From an archaeon (lineage in GTDB: Bacteria; Desulfobacterota; Dissulfuribacteria; Dissulfuribacterales; UBA3076), in assembly GCA_048631505.1 (NCBI GenBank), contig JAIWFS010000001.1:1-25000 (forward strand): a stretch of DNA of 25,000 nt. Reading direction: 5' to 3'. Under the pieces are notes generated by a model. The model had not been told where the DNA came from. It was given only the letters and a program-made list of their open reading frames with translations, and ran no database searches. Below, in pieces: positions 4,934 through 22,141 of the stretch. How positions within the stretch are numbered: position 1 is the stretch's first letter; each line of letters starts with the position of its first letter. The position numbers were made by a program, and so were the translations under genes.

Positions 4934-5956
4934 ATGAATATTTTACATGGACTGTTATATCCGGCAAGCTACCTCAGCCGGGATACAATGCTGCGGCTTG
5001 GCCAGGTATTCTCCAAACTGACTTTATTGGTACCTACAGAAGAGGATGTTAATCCACCACCCCCATCAAGTAACTGCTCCATGGAAATTGAGGCTACTGC
5101 GCCGGCCCCTCTGGGAGACAGGCTCGGCTGGTTCACCGGCCTTATCAGCAATTGGAAATCCTGGGCAGAAGAGATGGGCTTGGGAGAAAAGATTCCAGCC
5201 TCTACATTAATACGTGCTGCCGAAGGCGAGGAAGAATCTCTACAGGGAATTCTTAATACATTAAGGGGCACTGAAGTCCCTGACCCGCTTCTGGATGCGC
5301 GGATATTTCTTCAGCTTTCATTGGATCTGGATAGACGTAATGACGAATTGCAAACAGACCTTGACAAGATGGTAATACATGAAGACAAACTTAAGTCAAT
5401 ATTGAAAGATCCAGGGGAACTCGCCGACTCCCAGGGCTCTCCGAAATATCCTTACTCTCCTATTATGGAGCCCCTCCTCATGGCCAGGGAGCGATTGAGG
5501 GCCTGGGCATTGTTGTGGCAAAAATACACCTATCAAGGGCCGTGGCCAATCGGGGAAAGTATTACAGTAAAGGATCTGGTCGATAAGGCCTATGAAGCCT
5601 TACAGCCCAGAGAGGCCCCTGTAGATCTATTGGACCTGGTATTACCCCTTGATCCCAATATAAAGCCGGGAGAATCAGACAAAATCAATAACGGCCTGAC
5701 TTCACTTATTAATGCCATTTCAAACACAACCATACAGAACTATAGTGAAAATGGGGATATCCAGAAATTATCAGAAGAAATACAACAGACTTGGGACAAA
5801 GGCAATAAAAACCAGATTCCCGGCCCTATGTTAAACTTGACCTTATATCCTAAGAGGACGTGGAAAGAAGTATTTTCAAAGGCAGCCGACTTAGAATTAG
5901 AGGATAGAGGGCAAACCTCCAATGCAACATCCGGGTGGTCCTTCTTCCTGTGCTAG
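4934..5956 (+). CDS. Hypothetical protein (340 aa)
   Basis: Long ORF with an AAGGA SD; no motif recognised. Confidence 0.7.
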   Translation: MNILHGLLYPASYLSRDTMLRLGQVFSKLTLLVPTEEDVNPPPPSSNCSMEIEATAPAPLGDRLGWFTGLISNWKSWAEEMGLGEKIPASTLIRAAEGEEESLQGILNTLRGTEVPDPLLDARIFLQLSLDLDRRNDELQTDLDKMVIHEDKLKSILKDPGELADSQGSPKYPYSPIMEPLLMARERLRAWALLWQKYTYQGPWPIGESITVKDLVDKAYEALQPREAPVDLLDLVLPLDPNIKPGESDKINNGLTSLINAISNTTIQNYSENGDIQKLSEEIQQTWDKGNKNQIPGPMLNLTLYPKRTWKEVFSKAADLELEDRGQTSNATSGWSFFLC

Positions 5957-5979
5957 TGTTGCACAGAAGTCAACTGTTG

Positions 5980-7521
5980 CTAGAAGACCATGGCAAGGCT
6001 TTGCTGGGCAACATTAGCCACTTGTGACAGCCCTTCGGGTAATATTCCAAAATACATGATCCCCAGAGCAGCAGCAATCAATGCGATCATTGAAGTAACG
6101 CCAACTCTGCCGGCCACTACTTCCCTGGATGGCTCAACCATATACAGCATCCATATCACCCGCAGGTAGTAATATGCCCCGATAACACAGGTCAATATAC
6201 CCAGCGCTGCAAGCACGAAATACCCTTCTTTTATGGCCGCTGCGAACAAGTAGAACTTACCGATAAAACCGGCAGTGGGAGGAAGCCCCGCCATGGAAAC
6301 CAGGAACAGGGCCATCATGAAACTGAGAGCAGGATACTTGAACCCCAACCCCTTGTAATCGTCCAGGGTCTGGGCCTTTCCTTCCTGGCCATCCAACAGA
6401 TAGACCACACCGAAGGCCCCCATATTCATCAAGGTATACGCAAAGAGATAGAACAGCACACCCATGCGACCTTCATCATTTGCTGCAAGAATCCCCAAGA
6501 CCATGTACCCGGCATGAGCAATGGAGGAATACGCCAGCATGCGCTTCACGTTCTGTTGGGACACTGCAACCAGGTTGCCCACAAACATGGTAATAAGGGC
6601 CAGCCACCACAGCAGGGGTTTCCAGTATACTGCCAAGGCTGCCAGGTTGACCGTGGATTGAAACTCAGGTTGCCCGCTGTGCGCAAGAATCGGAGTAAAA
6701 GTAACAAACAAGAGCTTGATAAATATCCCAAAGGCCCCTGCCTTCACCGCTGTAGCCATAAAACCGGTTATAATCGCAGGACTACCCTCATAGACATCCG
6801 GGGTCCACATATGGAAGGGTACAAGGGCCATTTTGAAGAACAACCCTGACATCAGCATAGCCATAGCAACAAGCACCCCCGGGTTCTCAAGAAGAGGACC
6901 TGTGGACAGAACTTGAGCTATCTTTGTGATATTGATAGTACCGGTCAACCCATAAATCAGTGCAACCCCGAAAAGGAAGAACGCAGACCCAAAGCTCCCA
7001 AGAAGGAAATACTTAAGGGCCCCCTCCTGTGACTTCCTGTCGTTCTTCAGGAATGCAGCCAGGACATATACAGACAGGGACATCACCTCAAGAGCAATGA
7101 ACATCATGAGCAGATCAACTGACTGGACCATGGCTATGGTGCCATAAACCGCAAACAAAAGCAGTATGAAATATTCTGATCTAACCAGTTTATTGTTCCG
7201 CAAATAGCCTATACTCATAAGGCTCGCGAATATACCTGCCATCAAGACTATGGCCGACACAAATATGGCAAACTTCTCTGTAGAGAAGACATCCACCAGG
7301 ACTATTTCATTGAGTGTCCACCCACCAATCATATACTTCAACGCAACTAAAAAGCTCAGAGCAGTAAGCCAACCCATTGTTGCTACATGGTCCGGTTTCT
7401 CATCTGTTGAAAGCCAAAGATCAACAAAAATAAGCACTAGCCCGGCAATAAGGAGGATTATCTGTCCACCAGCTACCTGCCATAGCTGACTCAGGCTAAA
7501 GGAAAAACCAAGGTCGCTCAT
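5980..7521 (-). CDS. nuoN: NADH:quinone oxidoreductase subunit N
   Basis: Antiporter-like subunit: EVMSLSVYVL, EGALKYFLLGS, FKMALVPFHMWTPDVYEGSP, KRMLAYSSIAHAGY. ATG 7521 has AAGGAG at 8-nt spacing. Confidence 0.95.
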   Translation of the reverse strand: MSDLGFSFSLSQLWQVAGGQIILLIAGLVLIFVDLWLSTDEKPDHVATMGWLTALSFLVALKYMIGGWTLNEIVLVDVFSTEKFAIFVSAIVLMAGIFASLMSIGYLRNNKLVRSEYFILLLFAVYGTIAMVQSVDLLMMFIALEVMSLSVYVLAAFLKNDRKSQEGALKYFLLGSFGSAFFLFGVALIYGLTGTINITKIAQVLSTGPLLENPGVLVAMAMLMSGLFFKMALVPFHMWTPDVYEGSPAIITGFMATAVKAGAFGIFIKLLFVTFTPILAHSGQPEFQSTVNLAALAVYWKPLLWWLALITMFVGNLVAVSQQNVKRMLAYSSIAHAGYMVLGILAANDEGRMGVLFYLFAYTLMNMGAFGVVYLLDGQEGKAQTLDDYKGLGFKYPALSFMMALFLVSMAGLPPTAGFIGKFYLFAAAIKEGYFVLAALGILTCVIGAYYYLRVIWMLYMVEPSREVVAGRVGVTSMIALIAAALGIMYFGILPEGLSQVANVAQQSLAMVF

Positions 7522-9189: not shown

Positions 9190-11166
9190 TTACACAATGA
9201 AAAACCAGAGCATTACAACAAGTCCAAGGACCATAAATGCCCCATAGGTCTGCACATAACCATTATGGACCAGCCTTAACGCACCAGATCCCCTTTGTAC
9301 CCACCACGCCTGTCCATTCGCTCCTATGTCGTCGATGATGAACGCATCCACGAACTTCCAGAAGAACATTGAGAGATAATAAAACGGAAGGACAATCACG
9401 TAGTAGTATATTTCATCAACAAAGTATTTGTTATACACAAGCTTGTGATATATTGAATAGGTCTCGGCAAGCTTTCTTGGAAGTACATCAGCACGACGTA
9501 TATAGATATGATAAGCCAGGGAAATACCGCCAATGGCCACAGCCACCGAGCCAGCCATAAGAACCCACTCTACAACGGTGGAATGGTGTTGCACACCAAC
9601 ATAGGCAGCAATTATTTCATGTGAATTAGCAAATACCGGCTCAAAGAAATTTTCCATGACATTGGGTACATGGCCAAAGAGATTGCCGATTACATGCGGT
9701 AAGCCTAACCAGCCCCCAAACACTGAAAGAAAAGCCAGGATCATAAGGGGACCTGTCATGCTTAATGGCGATTCATGTAAGTGATGGGCCTGTTCTTCAG
9801 TACCTCGGAACTTACCATGGAAGGTCATGAAAATAAGCCTGAACATGTAAAAGGCCGTTATTCCAGCGGCAAGAAGGCCGATAAACCAGACTATCTTACC
9901 TACAACAGGATAATACGGAAACGTGAAGGCCTTCCACAGGATCTCGTCCTTACTGAAGAACCCTGCAAATGGAGGAATACCTGCAATCGCTATGGTTGCA
10001 AAAAGCATGGTGATATATGTGATGGGTATCTTCTTCCAAAGGCCACCCATGCTCCTCATATCCTGATCTCCGCCCATGGCGTGAATTACAGAACCGGCGC
10101 AAAGGAACAAGCAGGCCTTGAAAAAGGCGTGGGTCATGAGATGAAATATGCCTGCCCCATACGCAGCCACACTCACACCTATGAACATATATCCAAGCTG
10201 ACTTACAGTAGAATATGCAAGGACCCTCTTAATATCGTTCTGCAGGATACCAATGGTTGCCGCAATAAATGCAGTGGCCGCGGACATTAATACCAAAACC
10301 AGCAACGCAGTAGGAGCAAGGGTGAAAAGAACATTGGTCCTTGCTACCATATAGACGCCGGCGGTCACCATTGTTGCAGCATGGATGAGTGCTGAAACCG
10401 GGGTCGGGCCGGCCATGGCATCCGGGAGCCAGACAAACAAGGGGATCTGTGCTGATTTCCCGGTTGCTCCCAGGAAAAGCAAAAGGCATATGGCTATCAT
10501 TACCGGTGAGTTCATGGCCATTAAGCCATTCTCATACATGTGAGCTGCCTTTGGGAATACATCAAGATAAGACAGGGAACCAAACGTAATAAACATCAGG
10601 AACATGCCAAGGAGAAAGCCAAAGTCCCCAATCCGGTTAACAATAAAGGCCTTTTTACCCGCATCTGCATTCACGTTCTCCTTGTACCAGAAACCGATCA
10701 GCAGATAGGAAGCAAGACCTACGCCCTCCCAGCCGACAAACATCACTACATAGTTGGAACCCATGACCAGCATTATCATGAAAAACACAAACATGTTGAG
10801 GTAGGAAAAAAACCTCCAGGCTGCCTCATCATGTGCCATGTAACCTGTGCTGTATATATGAATAACAAAACTCACGCCGGTAACCACGAGGACCATCACA
10901 GCGGAAAGCGGATCAATCATCAAGGAAACATCTATATTCAGATTGCCTACGGCCATCCAATTCCATAGGACCTGCACGAGCAACCTGTCTTCAGCCGGGC
11001 TGCATGCCAGTTGGTACACGACCAGAATGGAAAATAGAAAAGCCAAGCCAATAGAGGAACAGCCAATGCAGAAAACACCGGATTTTCCGATCTTTTGCCC
11101 CAACAGGCCATTAATCAGAAATCCTATAAAAGGCAGTAGTGGTATGAGAAACAGATAACCTTCCAT
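9190..11166 (-). CDS. nuoL: NADH:quinone oxidoreductase subunit L
   Basis: GWEGVGLASYLLIGFW, GKSAQIPLFVWLPDAMAGPTPVSALIHAATMV and HAFFKACLFL motifs; C-terminal amphipathic region. Confidence 0.95.
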   Translation of the reverse strand: MEGYLFLIPLLPFIGFLINGLLGQKIGKSGVFCIGCSSIGLAFLFSILVVYQLACSPAEDRLLVQVLWNWMAVGNLNIDVSLMIDPLSAVMVLVVTGVSFVIHIYSTGYMAHDEAAWRFFSYLNMFVFFMIMLVMGSNYVVMFVGWEGVGLASYLLIGFWYKENVNADAGKKAFIVNRIGDFGFLLGMFLMFITFGSLSYLDVFPKAAHMYENGLMAMNSPVMIAICLLLFLGATGKSAQIPLFVWLPDAMAGPTPVSALIHAATMVTAGVYMVARTNVLFTLAPTALLVLVLMSAATAFIAATIGILQNDIKRVLAYSTVSQLGYMFIGVSVAAYGAGIFHLMTHAFFKACLFLCAGSVIHAMGGDQDMRSMGGLWKKIPITYITMLFATIAIAGIPPFAGFFSKDEILWKAFTFPYYPVVGKIVWFIGLLAAGITAFYMFRLIFMTFHGKFRGTEEQAHHLHESPLSMTGPLMILAFLSVFGGWLGLPHVIGNLFGHVPNVMENFFEPVFANSHEIIAAYVGVQHHSTVVEWVLMAGSVAVAIGGISLAYHIYIRRADVLPRKLAETYSIYHKLVYNKYFVDEIYYYVIVLPFYYLSMFFWKFVDAFIIDDIGANGQAWWVQRGSGALRLVHNGYVQTYGAFMVLGLVVMLWFFIV

Positions 11167-17393: not shown

Positions 17394-18845
17394 ATGGCGT
17401 ATTGCGATCTTCAGGATTTTATCAAGAAACTTGAGAAACATGGAGAACTTGTCAGGATCAAAGAGCCTGTGAGTCCGGTCCTTGAGATAACAGAGATCAC
17501 TGACAGGGTCTGCAAACTGTTTGGACCGGCCCTCCTCTTTGAAAACGTCCCTGGATTCGATATGCCTGTGCTTATGAATACCTTTGGATCCTACAGGCGA
17601 ATGTCCATGGCCCTGGAAGTGCCCAACCTCGACTCCCTTGGCGATGAAATCCTGGATTTTATCGAATCAGAGGCCCCTGATACCCTATTAAAAAAACTGA
17701 AAATAATACCCAAGCTCAAACGCTTGAAAAACGCCTTTCCAAAGACTGTCCCAAAGGCCCCCTGTCAAAAAATAGTCTACAAAGGTGAGGACGTCGATCT
17801 GACCCGCCTTCCGGTGCTTCACTGCTGGCCCGAGGACGGAGGTCCTTTCATAACCTTGCCCCTGGTCTTTACTCGCCATCCGGAGACAGGAATCAGAAAC
17901 GTCGGCATGTACCGCATGCAGGTCTTTGATAAAAAAACAACAGGCATGCACTGGCACACCCACAAGGGCGGGGCCCACCATTACAGGGTTGCCGAGCGCA
18001 TGGGACAGCGCCTGGAAGTTGCCGTCTCCATAGGGCCTGACCCGGCCATGACCTATGCGGCAACCGCCCCGCTTCCTGACGACGTAGACGAATGCATTTT
18101 TGCAGGATTTTTAAGAGAAGAGCCGGTCGAGCTTGTAAAATGCCTGACTGTGGACCTGGAGGTCCCGGCCTCATCTCAGATAATTCTTGAAGGATATGTC
18201 GAACCCGAAGAACGGCGAATCGAGGGTCCTTTTGGTGACCATACCGGATATTACTCCCTGGCTGACCAATACCCGGTCTTTCATGTAACCTGCATGACCC
18301 TCAGAAAAGACGCCATCTATCCGGCCACCATTGTCGGACAACCTCCACAGGAAGACTGCTACATGGCAAAGGCCACTGAACGCCTCTTTCTTCCTATGAT
18401 AAAAAAGACTTTGCCTGAAATTGTGGACATGAATCTCCCTCTTGAGGGCGTATTCCACAACCTGGCCTTTATATCCATTGACAAGCGCTATCCCGGCCAT
18501 GCCCGCAAAGTAATGCATGCCCTTTGGGGCCTCGGCCAGATGATGTTCTGTAAAATAATCCTTATCTTTGACAACGAGGTGGACGTGCAGGACCTGTCCC
18601 AGGTACTATGGCGCATGGGTAACAACATAGACCCCAGAAGGGACATAGTCTTTGCGGATGGGCCTGTAGATGCCCTTGATCATGCAGCACCACTCCCCCT
18701 TTATGGTAGCAAGATGGGTATAGACTGCACCAGAAAGTGGGCGGAAGAAGGGTTTACAAGACAGTGGCCGGATGTAATAGCAATGGAAAACGAAATCATC
18801 AAAAAGGTTGACAAGCTGTGGCCAAAGCTGGGACTGAAGACATGA
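17394..18845 (+). CDS. ubiD: UbiD-family prFMN decarboxylase (menaquinone/futalosine-pathway MqnL type)
   Basis: RNVGMYRMQ, EGPFGDHTGYY and SKMGIDCT motifs. Start reassigned to ATG 17394 (AGGAG SD); the longer track ORF runs through the tRNA. Confidence 0.93.
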   Translation: MAYCDLQDFIKKLEKHGELVRIKEPVSPVLEITEITDRVCKLFGPALLFENVPGFDMPVLMNTFGSYRRMSMALEVPNLDSLGDEILDFIESEAPDTLLKKLKIIPKLKRLKNAFPKTVPKAPCQKIVYKGEDVDLTRLPVLHCWPEDGGPFITLPLVFTRHPETGIRNVGMYRMQVFDKKTTGMHWHTHKGGAHHYRVAERMGQRLEVAVSIGPDPAMTYAATAPLPDDVDECIFAGFLREEPVELVKCLTVDLEVPASSQIILEGYVEPEERRIEGPFGDHTGYYSLADQYPVFHVTCMTLRKDAIYPATIVGQPPQEDCYMAKATERLFLPMIKKTLPEIVDMNLPLEGVFHNLAFISIDKRYPGHARKVMHALWGLGQMMFCKIILIFDNEVDVQDLSQVLWRMGNNIDPRRDIVFADGPVDALDHAAPLPLYGSKMGIDCTRKWAEEGFTRQWPDVIAMENEIIKKVDKLWPKLGLKT

Positions 18846-19426
18846 TGAAGGATAAAGGCCAGGAGCCAATCCTTCTTGCAATCACCGGGGCCAGTGGGTC
18901 TATCTACAGCCTTAAATTAATCGAAATCCTAAAAGACCTGGGCCAGGAGGTCCATCTCATCGTATCCAGGACAGGGGAACAGGTCTCCAGGATTGAGATC
19001 AAGGAAGATGGCTTCCAGGCCCTGATCCGGATGGCACACACAGTTTACAGCCCGGATAACCTGGCCGCTGCCCCTGCAAGTGGTTCAAGCAGATGGAAAG
19101 CCATGATAATCATCCCTTGTACAATGGGGACCATGGCATCCATAGCTCACGGATTCAGCCAAAACCTGATCCACAGGGCGGCTGACTGTTTCCTGAAGGA
19201 ACGTAGGCCCCTTATCCTGGTTCCCAGAGAAACCCCCTTGAATCGAATCCACTTACAAAATATGCTGTTGGCAGAAGAGGCCGGGGCCGTAATATATCCT
19301 GCAATGCCCAGCTTCTACTATCAACCCGGAAATATTGATGAAATGGCATCATTCTTTGCCGGCAGGTTGGCGGAATTCATAGGACTCGAGGTAGAAGGCC
19401 TTAAGAGGTGGCATGGAATTGATTAG
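18842..19426 (+). CDS. ubiX: Flavin prenyltransferase UbiX (MqnM)
   Basis: AITGASGSIY, ASGS, PCTMGT, RAADCFLKERRPLILVPRETP and PAMPSFY motifs; ATGA overlap with the ubiD stop. Confidence 0.95.
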   Translation: MMKDKGQEPILLAITGASGSIYSLKLIEILKDLGQEVHLIVSRTGEQVSRIEIKEDGFQALIRMAHTVYSPDNLAAAPASGSSRWKAMIIIPCTMGTMASIAHGFSQNLIHRAADCFLKERRPLILVPRETPLNRIHLQNMLLAEEAGAVIYPAMPSFYYQPGNIDEMASFFAGRLAEFIGLEVEGLKRWHGID

Positions 19427-19433
19427 GAGCCGC

Positions 19434-20339
19434 ATGCAATCACCAAATCACCAAATCACCAAATCACCAAATTCATTATCCCCAATTTCAAAGGTGCGGA
19501 TACTGCTTGAAATGATAAAATTCGAGCACACTATCCTTGCCCTGCCCTTTGCATACCTTGGGGCCTTTTTGGCTGCTGAAGGACCACCTGACCTGTGGAC
19601 TTCCCTGTGGATTCTTGTTGCTATGATTGGAGCCAGGACGGCTGCAATGGCTTTTAACCGTATAGTTGACATCCCCTTTGATTCAAAAAATCCCCGCACA
19701 AAGGAGAGGGCCCTCCCCAAAGGGACTGTCAAGGCAAGGGACGCCTGGATCATGGTAATAGTTGCTTCGGGGATTTACTTCCTGGCAGCCTATGAACTGA
19801 ATCGACTGGCATTCCTGCTCTCCCCGGTTTTCCTGGCTGTTGTGCTAAGCTACTCATATACCAAGAGGTTCACCTCACTGTGCCACCTCTTTTTGGGCCT
19901 GGCCCTGAGCCTGGCCCCTACGGCCGGATGGATCGCAGTAAAAGGAAGTGTAGAATTCCTTCCTTTGATCCTCAGCACAGGCGTACTTTTCTGGGTAGCG
20001 GGATTCGACGTTCTATATGGCTGCCTGGACTATGATTTTGACCGGAAACAAGGCCTGCACTCAATACCGGCAAGGTGGGGGATAAAGAAGGCCTTCTGGA
20101 TTTCAGGCATATTCCACTTTGTGGCCTTTATCGCCCTTGTTTCAGTGGGCCTTCTGGCACATCTCAACTGGATATACTACTGTGGCTTACTGGCCACCTT
20201 TGCACTCCTGGTAATGCAAAGGCTGGTGGTAAACCCCAAGGACCTTTCCCGGATGAATATGGCCTTTTTCACCTTTAACGGGGCCATAAGCATAATCCTG
20301 TTTACCGCAACAGCCATTTCTCTTATCTGGAAGGTCTGA
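19434..20339 (+). CDS. mqnP: UbiA-family prenyltransferase (MqnP-like)
   Basis: IKFEHT, AMAFNRIVD..D..NPRT..R, YSYTKRFT and GFDVLY..LD motifs; AGGAG SD before ATG 19434 (ATG 19413 is an in-frame alternative). Confidence 0.9.
   Translation: MQSPNHQITKSPNSLSPISKVRILLEMIKFEHTILALPFAYLGAFLAAEGPPDLWTSLWILVAMIGARTAAMAFNRIVDIPFDSKNPRTKERALPKGTVKARDAWIMVIVASGIYFLAAYELNRLAFLLSPVFLAVVLSYSYTKRFTSLCHLFLGLALSLAPTAGWIAVKGSVEFLPLILSTGVLFWVAGFDVLYGCLDYDFDRKQGLHSIPARWGIKKAFWISGIFHFVAFIALVSVGLLAHLNWIYYCGLLATFALLVMQRLVVNPKDLSRMNMAFFTFNGAISIILFTATAISLIWKV
19437..19472 (+). repeat. Tandem octamer repeat C(AATCACCA)4AAT, copy 1
   Basis: Four perfect 8-bp units at 19438-19469, immediately after the mqnP ATG. Confidence 0.97.
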
Positions 20340-21133
20340 TGCCCAAATTCGACATACCTGCCAGGATTGTAGAACAGACACAACTTGCCCATGGTATTTT
20401 CCTGCTTACGGTCAAGGCCCCTGCAATTCTGGATTCAGCCAACCCCGGGCAATTTTGCATGCTTGAGGTTAAATACAATAATAGCAGGGACCCTCTGCTT
20501 CGCCGCCCCCTGTCCATTTACAAGACCCGGGCAAACGGACAAATAAGCTTTCTTTATAAAGAAGTCGGCAAAGGCACCCGCCTGCTCTCGAAGCGGCGCC
20601 CCGGAGAGATAGTCAGGGTGCTGGGACCGCTGGGACAGGGCTTCAGGTTAATCCATGACCGTCCGTGCATACTGGTGGGCGGAGGGCTCGGCATTGCCCC
20701 TTTGCTCCTTCTGGCAGAGAGGATTAACCAATCCGGCAAACTTATCATCTTGATTGGGGCTGGAAATGCTTCGGAAATCCCGACCATTGAAGACTTCTCC
20801 GGACTTACCCGATATTTTCATGTTGCAACCGAGGACGGAAGCCTTGGACAAAGGGGAATGGTAACAGACCTGTTGGCTCAAACGCTCCAGGAAATCACGG
20901 GCATGGCGCAGATCTATACCTGTGGTCCGTGGCCTATGATGAAGGCTGTCTATCATATGGCCTGCAAAAAGAATATCCCCTGCCAGGTCTCACTGGAGGC
21001 TGCTATGGCTTGCGGCATAGGGCTGTGCCTGGGCTGTGCCGTTCCGAAATCAGATAGCCGGGGATTTCTCCACGTGTGCAAGGAAGGACCGGTATTTGAC
21101 GCAGATCAAGTACATTGGGAGTACACCCAGTGA
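20339..21133 (+). CDS. pyrK: Dihydroorotate dehydrogenase electron-transfer subunit
   Basis: PGQF, RRPLSI, GPLGQGF, VGGGLGIAP, CGP and the MACGIGLCLGC...VCKEGPVF [2Fe-2S] motif; TGATG overlap with mqnP. Confidence 0.93.
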   Translation: MPKFDIPARIVEQTQLAHGIFLLTVKAPAILDSANPGQFCMLEVKYNNSRDPLLRRPLSIYKTRANGQISFLYKEVGKGTRLLSKRRPGEIVRVLGPLGQGFRLIHDRPCILVGGGLGIAPLLLLAERINQSGKLIILIGAGNASEIPTIEDFSGLTRYFHVATEDGSLGQRGMVTDLLAQTLQEITGMAQIYTCGPWPMMKAVYHMACKKNIPCQVSLEAAMACGIGLCLGCAVPKSDSRGFLHVCKEGPVFDADQVHWEYTQ

Positions 21134-22089
21134 TCCATCAAAAAAATCCAATCACCAAATCACCAAATCACCAAATCACCAAATACCCCAATCTCTCAAT
21201 CAAAATTGGTTCCCTGATACTCAAAAATCCGGTCTTACTCGCCTCAGGGACCTGTGGTTATGGGGCAGAATTAAACGATCTTCTTGATTTGGACCAGGTA
21301 GGTGGAATTATAGTAAAAGGTATTTCCATTAAACCCCGTCCGGGGAACCCTCCTCCCCGCCTGGTGGAGACCCCGTGCGGTCTTTTGAACTCCATAGGGC
21401 TTGAAAACGTAGGAATAGAGTCTTTCCTCAGGGACAAGCTCCCCTGGCTGAGGAATGTAAAGACATCTTTGATTGTCAACATCCTTGGAAACTCAGTTGA
21501 AGAATATTCTGAAATAGCAAAAAAGCTCGACGGGGCAGAAGGTGTCAAGGCCATTGAGGTGAACATCTCATGCCCGAATGTAAAGGCAGGAGGCATTGCA
21601 TTCGGCACAGACCCTGAAGCTGCGGCAAATGTAACTCATGCGGTTAAGAAAGCCACAGGCCTTCCTGTAATAATAAAGCTCACACCAAATGTGACTGATA
21701 TTACCAAAGTTGCCCGGAAGGTGGCATCCGCAGGGGCAGATGCCATTTCTCTTATAAATACCCTCCTGGGTATGGCCATAGATATTAAGTCCAGGCGTCC
21801 GGCCCTGGGAAACGTGTTTGGAGGACTCTCAGGCCCGGCGATCAAACCCATTGCCCTGCGCATGGTCTGGCAGGTAGTCCGGGCTGTGGACATTCCTGTA
21901 ATAGGTATTGGTGGTATCAGCACCCCGGATGACGCGCTCGAATTCCTGATGGCCGGTGCAAAGGCGATTGAAATTGGTACGGCAACACTCGTACGGCCAG
22001 ACACTGCAGAGAACGTGCTGGCCGGTATCAGGGACTACATGGAGACCAACAGCATACAAAATGTAGAGGATTTGCGGCTACCGGTATGA
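21130..22089 (+). CDS. pyrD: Dihydroorotate dehydrogenase, family 1B catalytic subunit
   Basis: KNPVLLASGT, GNPPPR, LLNSIGLEN, EVNISCPN, KLTPN and GGLSGPAIKP motifs; probable GTG start overlapping the pyrK TGA (GTGA). Confidence 0.95.
   Translation: MIHQKNPITKSPNHQITKYPNLSIKIGSLILKNPVLLASGTCGYGAELNDLLDLDQVGGIIVKGISIKPRPGNPPPRLVETPCGLLNSIGLENVGIESFLRDKLPWLRNVKTSLIVNILGNSVEEYSEIAKKLDGAEGVKAIEVNISCPNVKAGGIAFGTDPEAAANVTHAVKKATGLPVIIKLTPNVTDITKVARKVASAGADAISLINTLLGMAIDIKSRRPALGNVFGGLSGPAIKPIALRMVWQVVRAVDIPVIGIGGISTPDDALEFLMAGAKAIEIGTATLVRPDTAENVLAGIRDYMETNSIQNVEDLRLPV
21149..21184 (+). repeat. Tandem octamer repeat C(AATCACCA)4AAT, copy 2
   Basis: Four perfect units at 21150-21181; 36/36 identical to copy 1; followed by degenerate units AATACCCC AATCTCTC AATCAAAA. 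Confidence 0.97.
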
Positions 22090-22101
22090 GAATTATTATA
22101 G

Positions 22102-22141
22102 GGGTTCAGAGGTTCAGGGTTCACCTTAAACCTCTGAACCC
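22102..22141 (+). repeat. Hairpin built from GGTTCA(G) repeats, just downstream of pyrD (terminator- or REP-like)
   Basis: Perfect 13-bp inverted repeat GGGTTCAGAGGTT (22102-22114) / AACCTCTGAACCC (22129-22141); no U-tract. Confidence 0.75.

Follow-up and report, generated by a model that had tools for sequence, protein, structure and literature searches.

The window, a stretch of 25 000 nucleotides (positions 1 to 25 000, forward strand, of contig JAIWFS010000001.1), is from a 1.34-Mb MAG (G000; 71 % complete) of Seep-SRB2 (GTDB g__UBA3076), sulfate-reducing bacteria of methane seeps and a bacterial partner of ANME archaea. It includes two copies of a short tandem array, which lie among the following features:

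18818..19426, + strand: UbiX-family flavin prenyltransferase, 5' of copy 1
19434..20339, + strand: MqnP-like UbiA-family prenyltransferase (mqnP); ATG 19512 is an alternative internal start
19437..19472, + strand: array copy 1, C + (AATCACCA)x4 + AAT, directly 3' of ATG 19434
20339..21133, + strand: pyrK, electron-transfer subunit, between copies 1 and 2
21130..22089, + strand: pyrD, class 1B dihydroorotate dehydrogenase, starting at GTG 21130, which overlaps the stop of pyrK (GTGA)
21149..21184, + strand: array copy 2, the identical 36-mer in another codon phase, PyrD residues 7–18 (PITKSPNHQITK)
21185..21204, + strand: degenerate octamer units AATACCCC, AATCTCTC and AATC.., extending copy 2
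22102..22141, + strand: hairpin just 3' of the pyrD stop, with arms formed by a GGTTCAG-type heptamer array and the complement

The hairpin is a member of another short-array family of the genome. The gene names assigned previously (UbiD-type menaquinone decarboxylase, UbiX, UbiA-like/MqnP-like prenyltransferase, PyrK and class 1B PyrD) were upheld; the MqnP-like protein scores above the subfamily cut-off and below the MqnP models' own cut-offs. Copy 1, read as M-QSPNHQITKSPN, is an N-terminal extension of this protein, and the family models start at residue 17–22. The mqnP array directly follows a start codon, ATG or GTG, in the window and in 7 of the 11 aligned orthologues from the genus; among the 11, one lacks the array and another has a shortened array and no start.

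As the earlier note had observed, the 36-mer occurs twice on the + strand, 1712 bp apart and 36/36 identical, with 0 matches in shuffles, and the copies are in different frames (codon phases 1 and 2). For both, TRF finds 4.4 copies of period 8 at 100 % identity. All three sense frames are stop-free and encode cyclic permutations of SPNHQITK, and the reverse strand (TGGTGATT) has TGA in every frame within 24 nt. The deletion of mqnP–pyrK that was predicted to arise between the copies is absent from all relatives compared. Nor are the arrays peculiar to one operon or to gene starts, as the same MAG has 34 (AATCACCA) arrays of at least 2 units.

The N-terminal region of pyrD is in frame and stop-free in 14 of 14 orthologues from the genus, at lengths of 51, 69, 75, 93 or 117 nt. 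Because no in-frame ATG, GTG or TTG separates the array from the conserved KNPV motif, the pyrD array must, judged from its sequence, be translated, as the other arrays presumably are. The expectation that PyrD orthologues would lack the extension was borne out in other orders, but within the genus its presence is variable. A contraction-only model for pyrD (4.5 to 1.5 units) was rejected; the 69-nt leader is widespread and outgroup-like, and the 93-nt and 117-nt leaders are derived.

The genome is generally rich in 7- and 8-nt arrays, with 222 period-7 and 146 period-8 arrays found by TRF in 1.34 Mb. A 24-mer of the array had 45 matches in the MAG. Elsewhere in the genus it was present in 16 of 17 species, and in the order's other genera it was found in none of 23 genomes, whereas the reversed control had 0 matches in the MAG and in all other genomes searched. 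The modal array length is 36 bp, which is 4.5 units or 12 codons, and the length spectrum is bimodal (11–21 nt and 34–37 nt). Most arrays begin at the same unit phase (21 of 25) and end in ..AAT (18 of 25). The earlier description of a dispersed, protein-compatible repeat therefore holds genome-wide and genus-wide. No earlier report of this family was found in the literature searched. CRISPR repeats, considered on account of the 36-bp size, were rejected, as the copies are single, dispersed and intragenic, and are not regularly spaced with unique spacers beside cas.

About 90 % of the arrays are in sense orientation within real genes, and all three frames are used (codon phases 9 : 8 : 6). In G000, 26 of 34 arrays are within ORFs of at least 150 aa, and in a second genome, G011, 41 of 44 are genic and in the sense orientation. 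The host genes are ordinary housekeeping genes, including those for LeuRS, ProRS, DnaE, MurG, FtsQ, Mfd, SelB, GpsA and FolK, and each genome has over 40 proteins with the peptide. Roughly one array in three is within approximately 15 codons of a start and the remainder are in loops or linkers. The earlier proposal that the repeat colonises gene junctions is therefore correct only in part; N-terminal positions are enriched approximately 8-fold (12 of the 41 genic arrays in G011 are no more than 15 codons from the ORF start, versus 1.5 expected), but most arrays are deep within conserved enzymes. The start codon directly adjoins the array in mqnP, dnaE, miaA and the pyrD of L038 and L039. The arrays in FolK and GpsA coincide with alignment gaps of solved homologues, and AlphaFold models GpsA (mean pLDDT 90.9) with only one internal low-confidence stretch, the array peptide, which is a coil at residues 101–110 with pLDDT 49. 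The ProRS array is in a linker that is hypervariable but equal in length across relatives.

The anticipated strand bias is present and, within ORFs, is accounted for by the reverse-strand stop codons. Of the arrays outside ORFs, 7 of 8 are antisense and several begin at the TGA stop of the upstream gene. However, stop-freeness was rejected as the sole cause of the genic location, as other array families of the genome, stop-free ones included, are almost never within ORFs, though many of these are inverted pairs. Intergenic copies make up approximately 7–20 %, far below the expectation for random insertion and a viability filter alone.

Orthologous sites were aligned in the genes for LeuRS, MurG, FtsQ, MurE-F, mqnP, ProRS, GpsA, FolK, SelB, Mfd, an AddB-like protein, an aminotransferase, the CCA enzyme, KdsB and pyrD. 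The array sites are orthologous across the genus, and nearly every site examined is common to it. Every coding length difference is a multiple of 3, and coding indels are multiples of 24 bp (3 units) with two exceptions, a 12-nt difference in CCA of G013 and an 18-nt difference in the pyrD leader. Jumps from 1.5 to 4.5 units were seen in pyrD, GpsA and FolK, each in subsets of species; such a jump is hard to achieve by simple slippage. Arrays have been lost or shortened with no visible consequence in mqnP of L037, GpsA and the aminotransferase of G001 and the ProRS cluster P0011, and an MTHFR-like gene is polymorphic between strains, with one form lacking the array.

Variant units sweep whole arrays. 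This includes (GATCACCA)4 in LeuRS of G017, (AATCAGCA)4 in mqnP of L034, (AATCCCTC)4 in Mfd of G003 and (AATCACCC)3 in the CCA enzyme of G017, and variant arrays alter the encoded peptide (DHQITRSP, NPSIPQSL). Near-identity is kept in the crown species, where arrays differ at approximately 2.4 % of sites versus 5–12 % at third codon positions (approximately 4-fold more conserved), and arrays decay in the divergent species, where they differ at 30–38 % of sites versus 24 % at third codon positions. The species with decaying arrays are G004, G009, G012 and G013. As conservation of the crown arrays is several-fold above that expected of neutral drift, even with local homogenisation allowed for, inter-locus conversion or selection is needed. 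A search for further arrays of GATCACCA, the genome-specific G variant, as a sign of inter-locus concerted evolution found only a few extra matches and therefore gave no support for it.

We lean towards the view that the arrays are a coding satellite of the STRR/LSSR type that is translated and stop-free, resembles the Rickettsia RPEs in its outcome and is held uniform through concerted evolution. As 8 has no common factor with 3 and no frame of the sense strand contains a stop, the arrays fit any reading frame, and any array would encode the same hydrophilic, proline-containing peptide (cyclic SPNHQITK). Arrays would therefore persist wherever a floppy 12-residue stretch is tolerated, whether just 3' of a start codon, in a surface loop or in a linker between domains. 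Arrays in the reverse orientation would be kept only beyond ORFs or at their ends, where the TGA would terminate the upstream gene. Since the sites are orthologous, the family is older than the Seep-SRB2 radiation. Turnover would be by unequal exchange or slippage in 3-unit steps, together with templated copying between dispersed arrays, either ectopic conversion or template switching, and templated copying would account both for the +24-bp jumps from a 12-nt seed to the 36-bp form and for conservation beyond the neutral rate. The arrays would have no dedicated cellular function, although N-terminal copies may incidentally leave the initiation region unstructured. The scarcity of intergenic copies and the strength of the N-terminal enrichment go against the satellite reading, as do the 1.5 to 4.5 unit jump, the conservation of the crown arrays above neutral drift and the near-absence of the genome's other array families from ORFs.

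Repeats of related kinds are covered in PMC4679880 (which reviews Mrazek 2007), namely long simple sequence repeats (LSSRs) with 5–11-nt units, the STRR heptamers of cyanobacteria and the TAACTGA direct repeats of marine Beggiatoaceae. The Seep-SRB2 arrays share with these the head-to-tail unit of 5–11 nt, repeated beyond chance, and the dispersal of many short arrays (7–8-nt units, few copies each, tens to hundreds per genome) through a repeat-rich genome, with a patchy taxonomic distribution. In both, one orientation has stops in all frames and is found at ORF ends or just upstream of starts, and in the known systems the reverse orientation is occasionally within ORFs, at the periphery. However, STRR- and TAACTGA-like arrays are mostly intergenic, whereas the dominant unit in Seep-SRB2 is 8 nt and its arrays are overwhelmingly in ORFs, even in the middle of essential enzymes. 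The Seep-SRB2 sites are also genus-conserved, quantised in length (12, 36 or 60 nt) and near-identical in one clade. The Rickettsia RPEs resemble the Seep-SRB2 arrays in that one family is in frame in many unrelated housekeeping genes, is translated as an extra peptide at tolerated, fold-compatible positions and is confined to one genus of host-dependent or syntrophic bacteria. RPEs are, however, approximately 100–150 bp, palindromic and MITE-like with one usable frame per family, whereas the arrays are 36-bp non-palindromic tandem octamers that lack inverted ends, have three usable frames and expand or contract, and no duplication is visible in their flanks.

For the crown Seep-SRB2, a bolder and less probable reading is that the arrays are not passive, and that some factor in the cells holds over 40 dispersed 36-bp arrays to one sequence across species; lineages that lost it would have let their arrays decay. 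This could be templated rewriting or conversion, which could also build up 12-nt seeds to the standard module, or else selection for a cis-element or peptide shared by dozens of essential genes.

That the arrays are selected cis-acting RNA elements is possible but rather doubtful. The sense RNA, (AAUCACCA)4, is G-free, A/C-rich and unstructured, and sense copies right after starts or in 5' leaders would aid initiation or bind a factor such as ribosomal protein S1 or a cold-shock-type protein, while antisense copies in operon spacers (UUUGGUGA) would provide stops in all frames and the Shine–Dalgarno-like GGUGA. The enrichment near starts, the start codons that abut arrays, the antisense orientation and upstream-stop position of copies outside ORFs, and conservation in the crown group above that of third codon positions would all fit, and the Beggiatoaceae TAACTGA repeats that lie just upstream of starts offer a parallel (PMC4679880). 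However, a role in initiation is impossible for the two thirds of arrays that lie deep in ORFs. The losses and shortenings without visible consequence and the decay in divergent species also argue against selection, and few starts in the MAG are preceded by GGTGA (14 of 645 crude starts). The array unit contains AUCACC, which also occurs beside the anti-Shine–Dalgarno sequence in the 16S rRNA 3' tail; no 16S 3' end is present in the MAG. CA-rich or unstructured translation enhancers downstream of the start exist in Escherichia coli, and about a third of the arrays likewise place an A/C-rich, G-free tract right after a start. Unlike those enhancers, most array copies are far from any start.

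An active sequence-specific process that goes on writing or moving the module, such as a small mobile element or an enzyme of templated insertion, is unlikely. If a mobile element were involved, arrays would be its ends or its target, and solo arrays would be footprints. Constant boundaries and a standard 36-bp size are in keeping with such a process, as are the +24-bp jumps by which 12-nt seeds reach the standard form in some of the species, the whole-array replacement in Mfd of G003 and the array-free strain form of the MTHFR-like gene. Patchily distributed array-core-array composites (core TTAGCCACAGACMCACACAGAC..) were found in MurG and the AddB-like gene, and G000 has a solo array where relatives have the composite. 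However, nearly all sites examined are genus-wide, which leaves few if any recent insertions, and neither a target-site duplication nor terminal inverted repeats nor an associated gene could be identified. The core is also present without arrays; there are 0–12 cores per genome and approximately half have no adjoining array. The composite was therefore rejected as ancestor of all arrays and accounts for at most some sites, e.g. that in the AddB-like gene. A loose regular-expression pattern for the core returned only noise.

A functional peptide, acting as a frame-independent tag for recognition, localisation or turnover on dozens of housekeeping proteins, is very improbable. It is true that all 5-residue windows of the cyclic peptide are present in any 12 consecutive residues, that arrays of exactly 12 codons are the commonest and that so many proteins share the peptide. 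However, it is the nucleotide sequence that is conserved, whatever the frame, variant arrays freely change the peptide, and single species have lost arrays; the peptide is also predicted to be disordered and has no known partner. More improbable still are contingency loci, in which slippage by one or two units would switch genes off and on (phase variation). The unit length is not divisible by 3, and there are arrays in or near gene 5' ends, as in the contingency loci of host-adapted pathogens, but here the hosts are single-copy essential genes (LeuRS, ProRS, DnaE, MurG), copy number is low and nearly fixed, and the frame is kept in 14 of 14 pyrD leaders and at every aligned internal site, with no out-of-frame allele seen.

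An assembly or sequencing artefact, which the earlier note had raised, can be discounted; although short-k assemblies break at arrays, 17 independently assembled species have arrays at the same sites with species-specific substitutions, the stretch is present in at least 14 independent studies, and in X25 (labelled RNA-Seq, flagged as probably DNA) contigs end or start inside the array with a 19-nt overlap and none bridges it. In the metatranscriptome, k=31 contigs break at the array of the MTHFR-like locus, so none spans it. Array words are very abundant in RNA libraries.

The coding satellite reading means that a repeat with a unit that is not a multiple of three can inhabit essential bacterial genes, since none of its sense frames has a stop and the peptide that it encodes is benign. 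Its bearer is an uncultured syntrophic partner of methane-oxidising archaea, in which the arrays break short-read assemblies and add lineage-specific peptides; SPNHQITK, a shared tryptic peptide, could be a proteomic marker for Seep-SRB2. The 24-bp steps and the existence of both maintaining and decaying clades make the origin and upkeep of 7–8-nt arrays, in cyanobacteria, Beggiatoaceae and similar groups, directly testable.

The window contains exactly two copies of the 36 bp sequence C(AATCACCA)4AAT, both on the + strand and identical to each other, as the earlier note had described; shuffled sequence contained no match. TRF reports both copies with period 8, 4.4 copies and 100 % identity. 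The surrounding genes include one for a UbiD-type menaquinone decarboxylase and those listed here.

Arrays, genes and hairpin in the window
18818-19426, UbiX
19434-20339, UbiA-like/MqnP-like prenyltransferase
19437-19472, + strand, array copy 1, exact 36-mer match
20339-21133, PyrK
21130-22089, class 1B PyrD
21149-21184, + strand, array copy 2, exact 36-mer match
22102-22141, hairpin directly 3' of the pyrD stop, with 19 nt arms that are 89 % complementary

The coding properties originally attributed to the unit also hold: the sense strand of AATCACCA is stop-free in all frames, giving cyclic permutations of SPNHQITK, TGA is present in every frame of the reverse strand, and the two copies are in different codon phases. 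The family models first match MqnP at residue 17-22 and PyrD at about residue 21, which makes both arrays N-terminal extensions. The GTG start of pyrD overlaps the pyrK stop, and no ATG, GTG or TTG lies in frame from the pyrD array to the conserved KNPV motif. The GTG-to-KNPV stretch is stop-free and a multiple of three in 14/14 genus orthologues (51, 69, 75, 93 or 117 nt). At the MTHFR-like locus, metatranscriptome contigs end at the array, with none bridging it. The predicted mqnP-pyrK deletion between the direct copies was seen in no relative examined.

The MAG containing the window (G000; 1.34 Mb, 252 contigs, 71 % complete, 48.7 % G+C) has 34 perfect AATCACCA arrays of at least 2 units, and a 24-mer of the unit gave 45 matches against 0 for the reversed control. 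TRF found 222 period-7 and 146 period-8 arrays in G000. Among the array families, AATCACCA is the largest and stands alone in being mainly genic; the others, including those stop-free on one or both strands, are almost never within ORFs. Close PyrD loci belong to MAGs labelled Seep-SRB2, including E20SeepSRB2, FWG174_SeepSRB2 and UBA3076. Seep-SRB2 corresponds to GTDB genus UBA3076 (Dissulfuribacterales), for which the name 'Desulfomithrium' has been proposed in a paper that does not mention AATCACCA repeats (PMC10553843). The 24-mer was found in 16 of 17 other species of this genus, with 0-2 matches in each of four divergent species (G004, G009, G012 and G013), and in 0/23 genomes representing other genera within the family and order. 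The sole viral-collection contig with an array, IMGVR_UViG_3300049432_000205 from IMG/VR (locus L160, 4510-4640), may derive from a Seep-SRB2 virus or from a piece of host genome. Its spacer array consists of 6 perfect units and degenerate AATCCTTC units, preceded by inverted TGATTGAA units.

In G000, 26 of the 34 arrays are sense and within ORFs of at least 150 aa. The hosts are MqnP-like, PyrD, a MurE-MurF fusion, MurG (two sites), FtsQ, a DUF2760 protein, GpsA, FolK, SelB, Mfd, KdsB, ProRS, an AddB-like nuclease, DnaE, two MTHFR-like genes, LeuRS (editing domain), a class-III aminotransferase, a radical-SAM protein, the CCA-adding enzyme and MiaA. The arrays before the two MTHFR-like genes seem to be in 5' leaders, as their length differences are not multiples of three. 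The array upstream of the MTHFR-like gene at L074 (G000 C148, 3557-3607) shows a presence/absence polymorphism, with 14-16 unrelated letters replacing it in other strains (two metatranscriptome runs). In G011, another genome, assembled into long contigs, 41/44 arrays are genic and sense; 12 of these 41 lie no more than 15 codons from the ORF start, where 1.5 were expected (Poisson P about 7e-8), and the remainder are distributed along protein lengths. Codon phases divide 9:8:6, with every frame in use. The few arrays beyond ORFs mostly run antisense to the operon around them (5/5 in G000, 2/3 in G011), reading UUUGGUGA in mRNA, and several begin at the TGA that terminates the gene upstream. 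The unit contains ATCACC, which would be identical to the part of the 16S rRNA 3' tail that lies immediately 5' of the anti-Shine-Dalgarno CCUCC, though the MAG contains no 16S 3' end; if so, antisense arrays would show GGUGAU, an extension of the Shine-Dalgarno consensus.

Array sites are common across the genus at every locus examined, namely LeuRS, MurE-F, MurG (both sites), FtsQ, the mqnP leader, ProRS, GpsA, FolK, SelB, Mfd, the AddB-like gene, the aminotransferase, the CCA enzyme, KdsB and pyrD. Within coding sequence, arrays differ in length by multiples of 24 bp (3 units), with two exceptions, one of 12 nt (CCA enzyme, G013) and one of 18 nt (pyrD leader). LeuRS has +24 in G000, G003 and G011, the MurG N-terminus +24 in G006 and G016, and one ProRS cluster -8 aa, while GpsA, FolK, the aminotransferase and pyrD have 1.5 or 4.5 units. 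Spacers and 5' leaders vary freely in length. Perfect-run lengths are bimodal (11-21 nt and 34-37 nt, none at 22-26 nt), the unit phase at the array start is identical in 21/25 and 18/25 end in ..AAT. Such common boundaries argue for a common module or templating over independent birth by slippage. A 69 nt pyrD leader is the widespread, outgroup-like state, and the 93 nt leader in the window is derived, so arrays do jump from 1.5 units to 4.5. GpsA lengths agree: most of the genus has 345 aa, as do relatives at 72-76 % identity, and 353 aa is found only in crown species and one lineage at 88 % identity, again indicating array expansion.

Whole-array variants show local concerted evolution. They include (GATCACCA)4 in LeuRS and (AATCACCC)3 in the CCA enzyme of G017, (AATCAGCA)4 in mqnP of the UBA3076 type MAG, (AATTACCA)n and (AATCAACA)n in G015, and (AATCCCTC)4, which replaces the entire array of Mfd in G003, the genome most closely related to G000, between flanks about 93 % identical. 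Arrays of crown species differ at about 2.4 % of sites against 5-12 % third-codon-position divergence, whereas in divergent species they differ at 30-38 % of sites against about 24 %. One clade thus maintains its arrays, and in the others they are decaying.

When FolK and GpsA were aligned with solved structures, the array peptide sat in gaps. In an AlphaFold model of G000 GpsA (81 homologues, mean pLDDT 90.9), the array peptide, residues 101-110, is the sole internal low-confidence stretch (pLDDT 49), predicted as a coil joining helix 81-99 to strand 115-118. In ProRS, the array forms 16 residues of a linker that is hypervariable yet constant in length among relatives (569 aa with the array, 568-573 aa in relatives). 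Judged from these alignments and reading frames, the arrays appear to be translated and tolerated by their host proteins. The ProRS linker (L064, G000 C99, residues about 240-262; clusters P0003, P0006-P0010) has two equal-length alleles, one wholly array-encoded (SPNHQITKSPNHQITK) and the other with NESLIECKK as its second half, distributed across the genus at odds with relatedness.

Other repeats accompany the arrays. Heptamer arrays often form both arms of spacer hairpins, and several heptamer families seem to build them throughout G000. The hairpin after pyrD pairs a GGTTCAG-type array with its complement, and relatives have another heptamer hairpin in the ubiX-mqnP spacer. A second dispersed motif, TTAGCCACAGACMCACACAGAC.. 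(fuller form TTAGCCACAGAC(A/C)CACAC(A/G)GAC..), sometimes lies between two AATCACCA arrays, as at L059 (G000 C4, 8682-8734) and the orthologous spacers L100-L119, and even in frame within MurG (G011, G014, G006, G003 and G010) and the AddB-like nuclease gene (L209-L212). There are 0-12 copies per genome, about half without adjoining arrays, and some are paired with an inverted GTCTGTG array around a hairpin. Where relatives have an array-motif-array composite, G000 has a solo array; the 57 nt difference is consistent with deletion between direct arrays. At about residue 796 of the MurE-MurF fusion (L059, about 10468-10508), the repeat type varies by species, with (AATCACCA)5 in some, (ATTCAAA)4 or (CTCAAAG)4 in G001, G002, G015 and G004, and a short version in both G007 and G008. 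The distribution does not track relatedness and points to exchange of alleles or repeated replacement. Upstream of kdsB (L073, G000 C70, about 5918-6088) lies a repeat of about 165 bp that is dispersed in many copies per genome, with 17 matches in G011 and 10 in G001, and is probably a MITE-like element.

The nearest known counterparts are the TAACTGA heptamer repeats of Beggiatoaceae and cyanobacterial STRR/LSSR arrays, which are likewise dispersed short arrays but mostly intergenic (PMC4679880), and Rickettsia palindromic elements, which share in-frame, fold-compatible insertion and survival inside genes (PMC10969869) but are palindromic and about 150 bp. Unlike both, the AATCACCA family has an 8 nt unit usable in all frames, quantised length, genus-wide site conservation and clade-specific maintenance. 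No published report of it was found in the literature searched.

We lean towards regarding the family as a translated, stop-free coding satellite of STRR/LSSR-type short arrays. A purely neutral model does not explain why intergenic copies are so few, conservation is clade-specific, N-terminal positions are strongly enriched and spacer arrays tend to be antisense. These same features keep alive a cis-acting RNA function, which we consider unlikely, and production by an active writing or mobile process, which we regard as improbable. Phase variation and artefact are effectively excluded. The array comparisons show turnover in 3-unit steps and local homogenisation, and from the constant module size, the seed-to-module jumps and conservation beyond neutral expectation we infer templating between loci. 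The unit would simply happen to lack stops in every sense frame and to specify a peptide prone to disorder, and for these reasons the arrays would survive inside genes.
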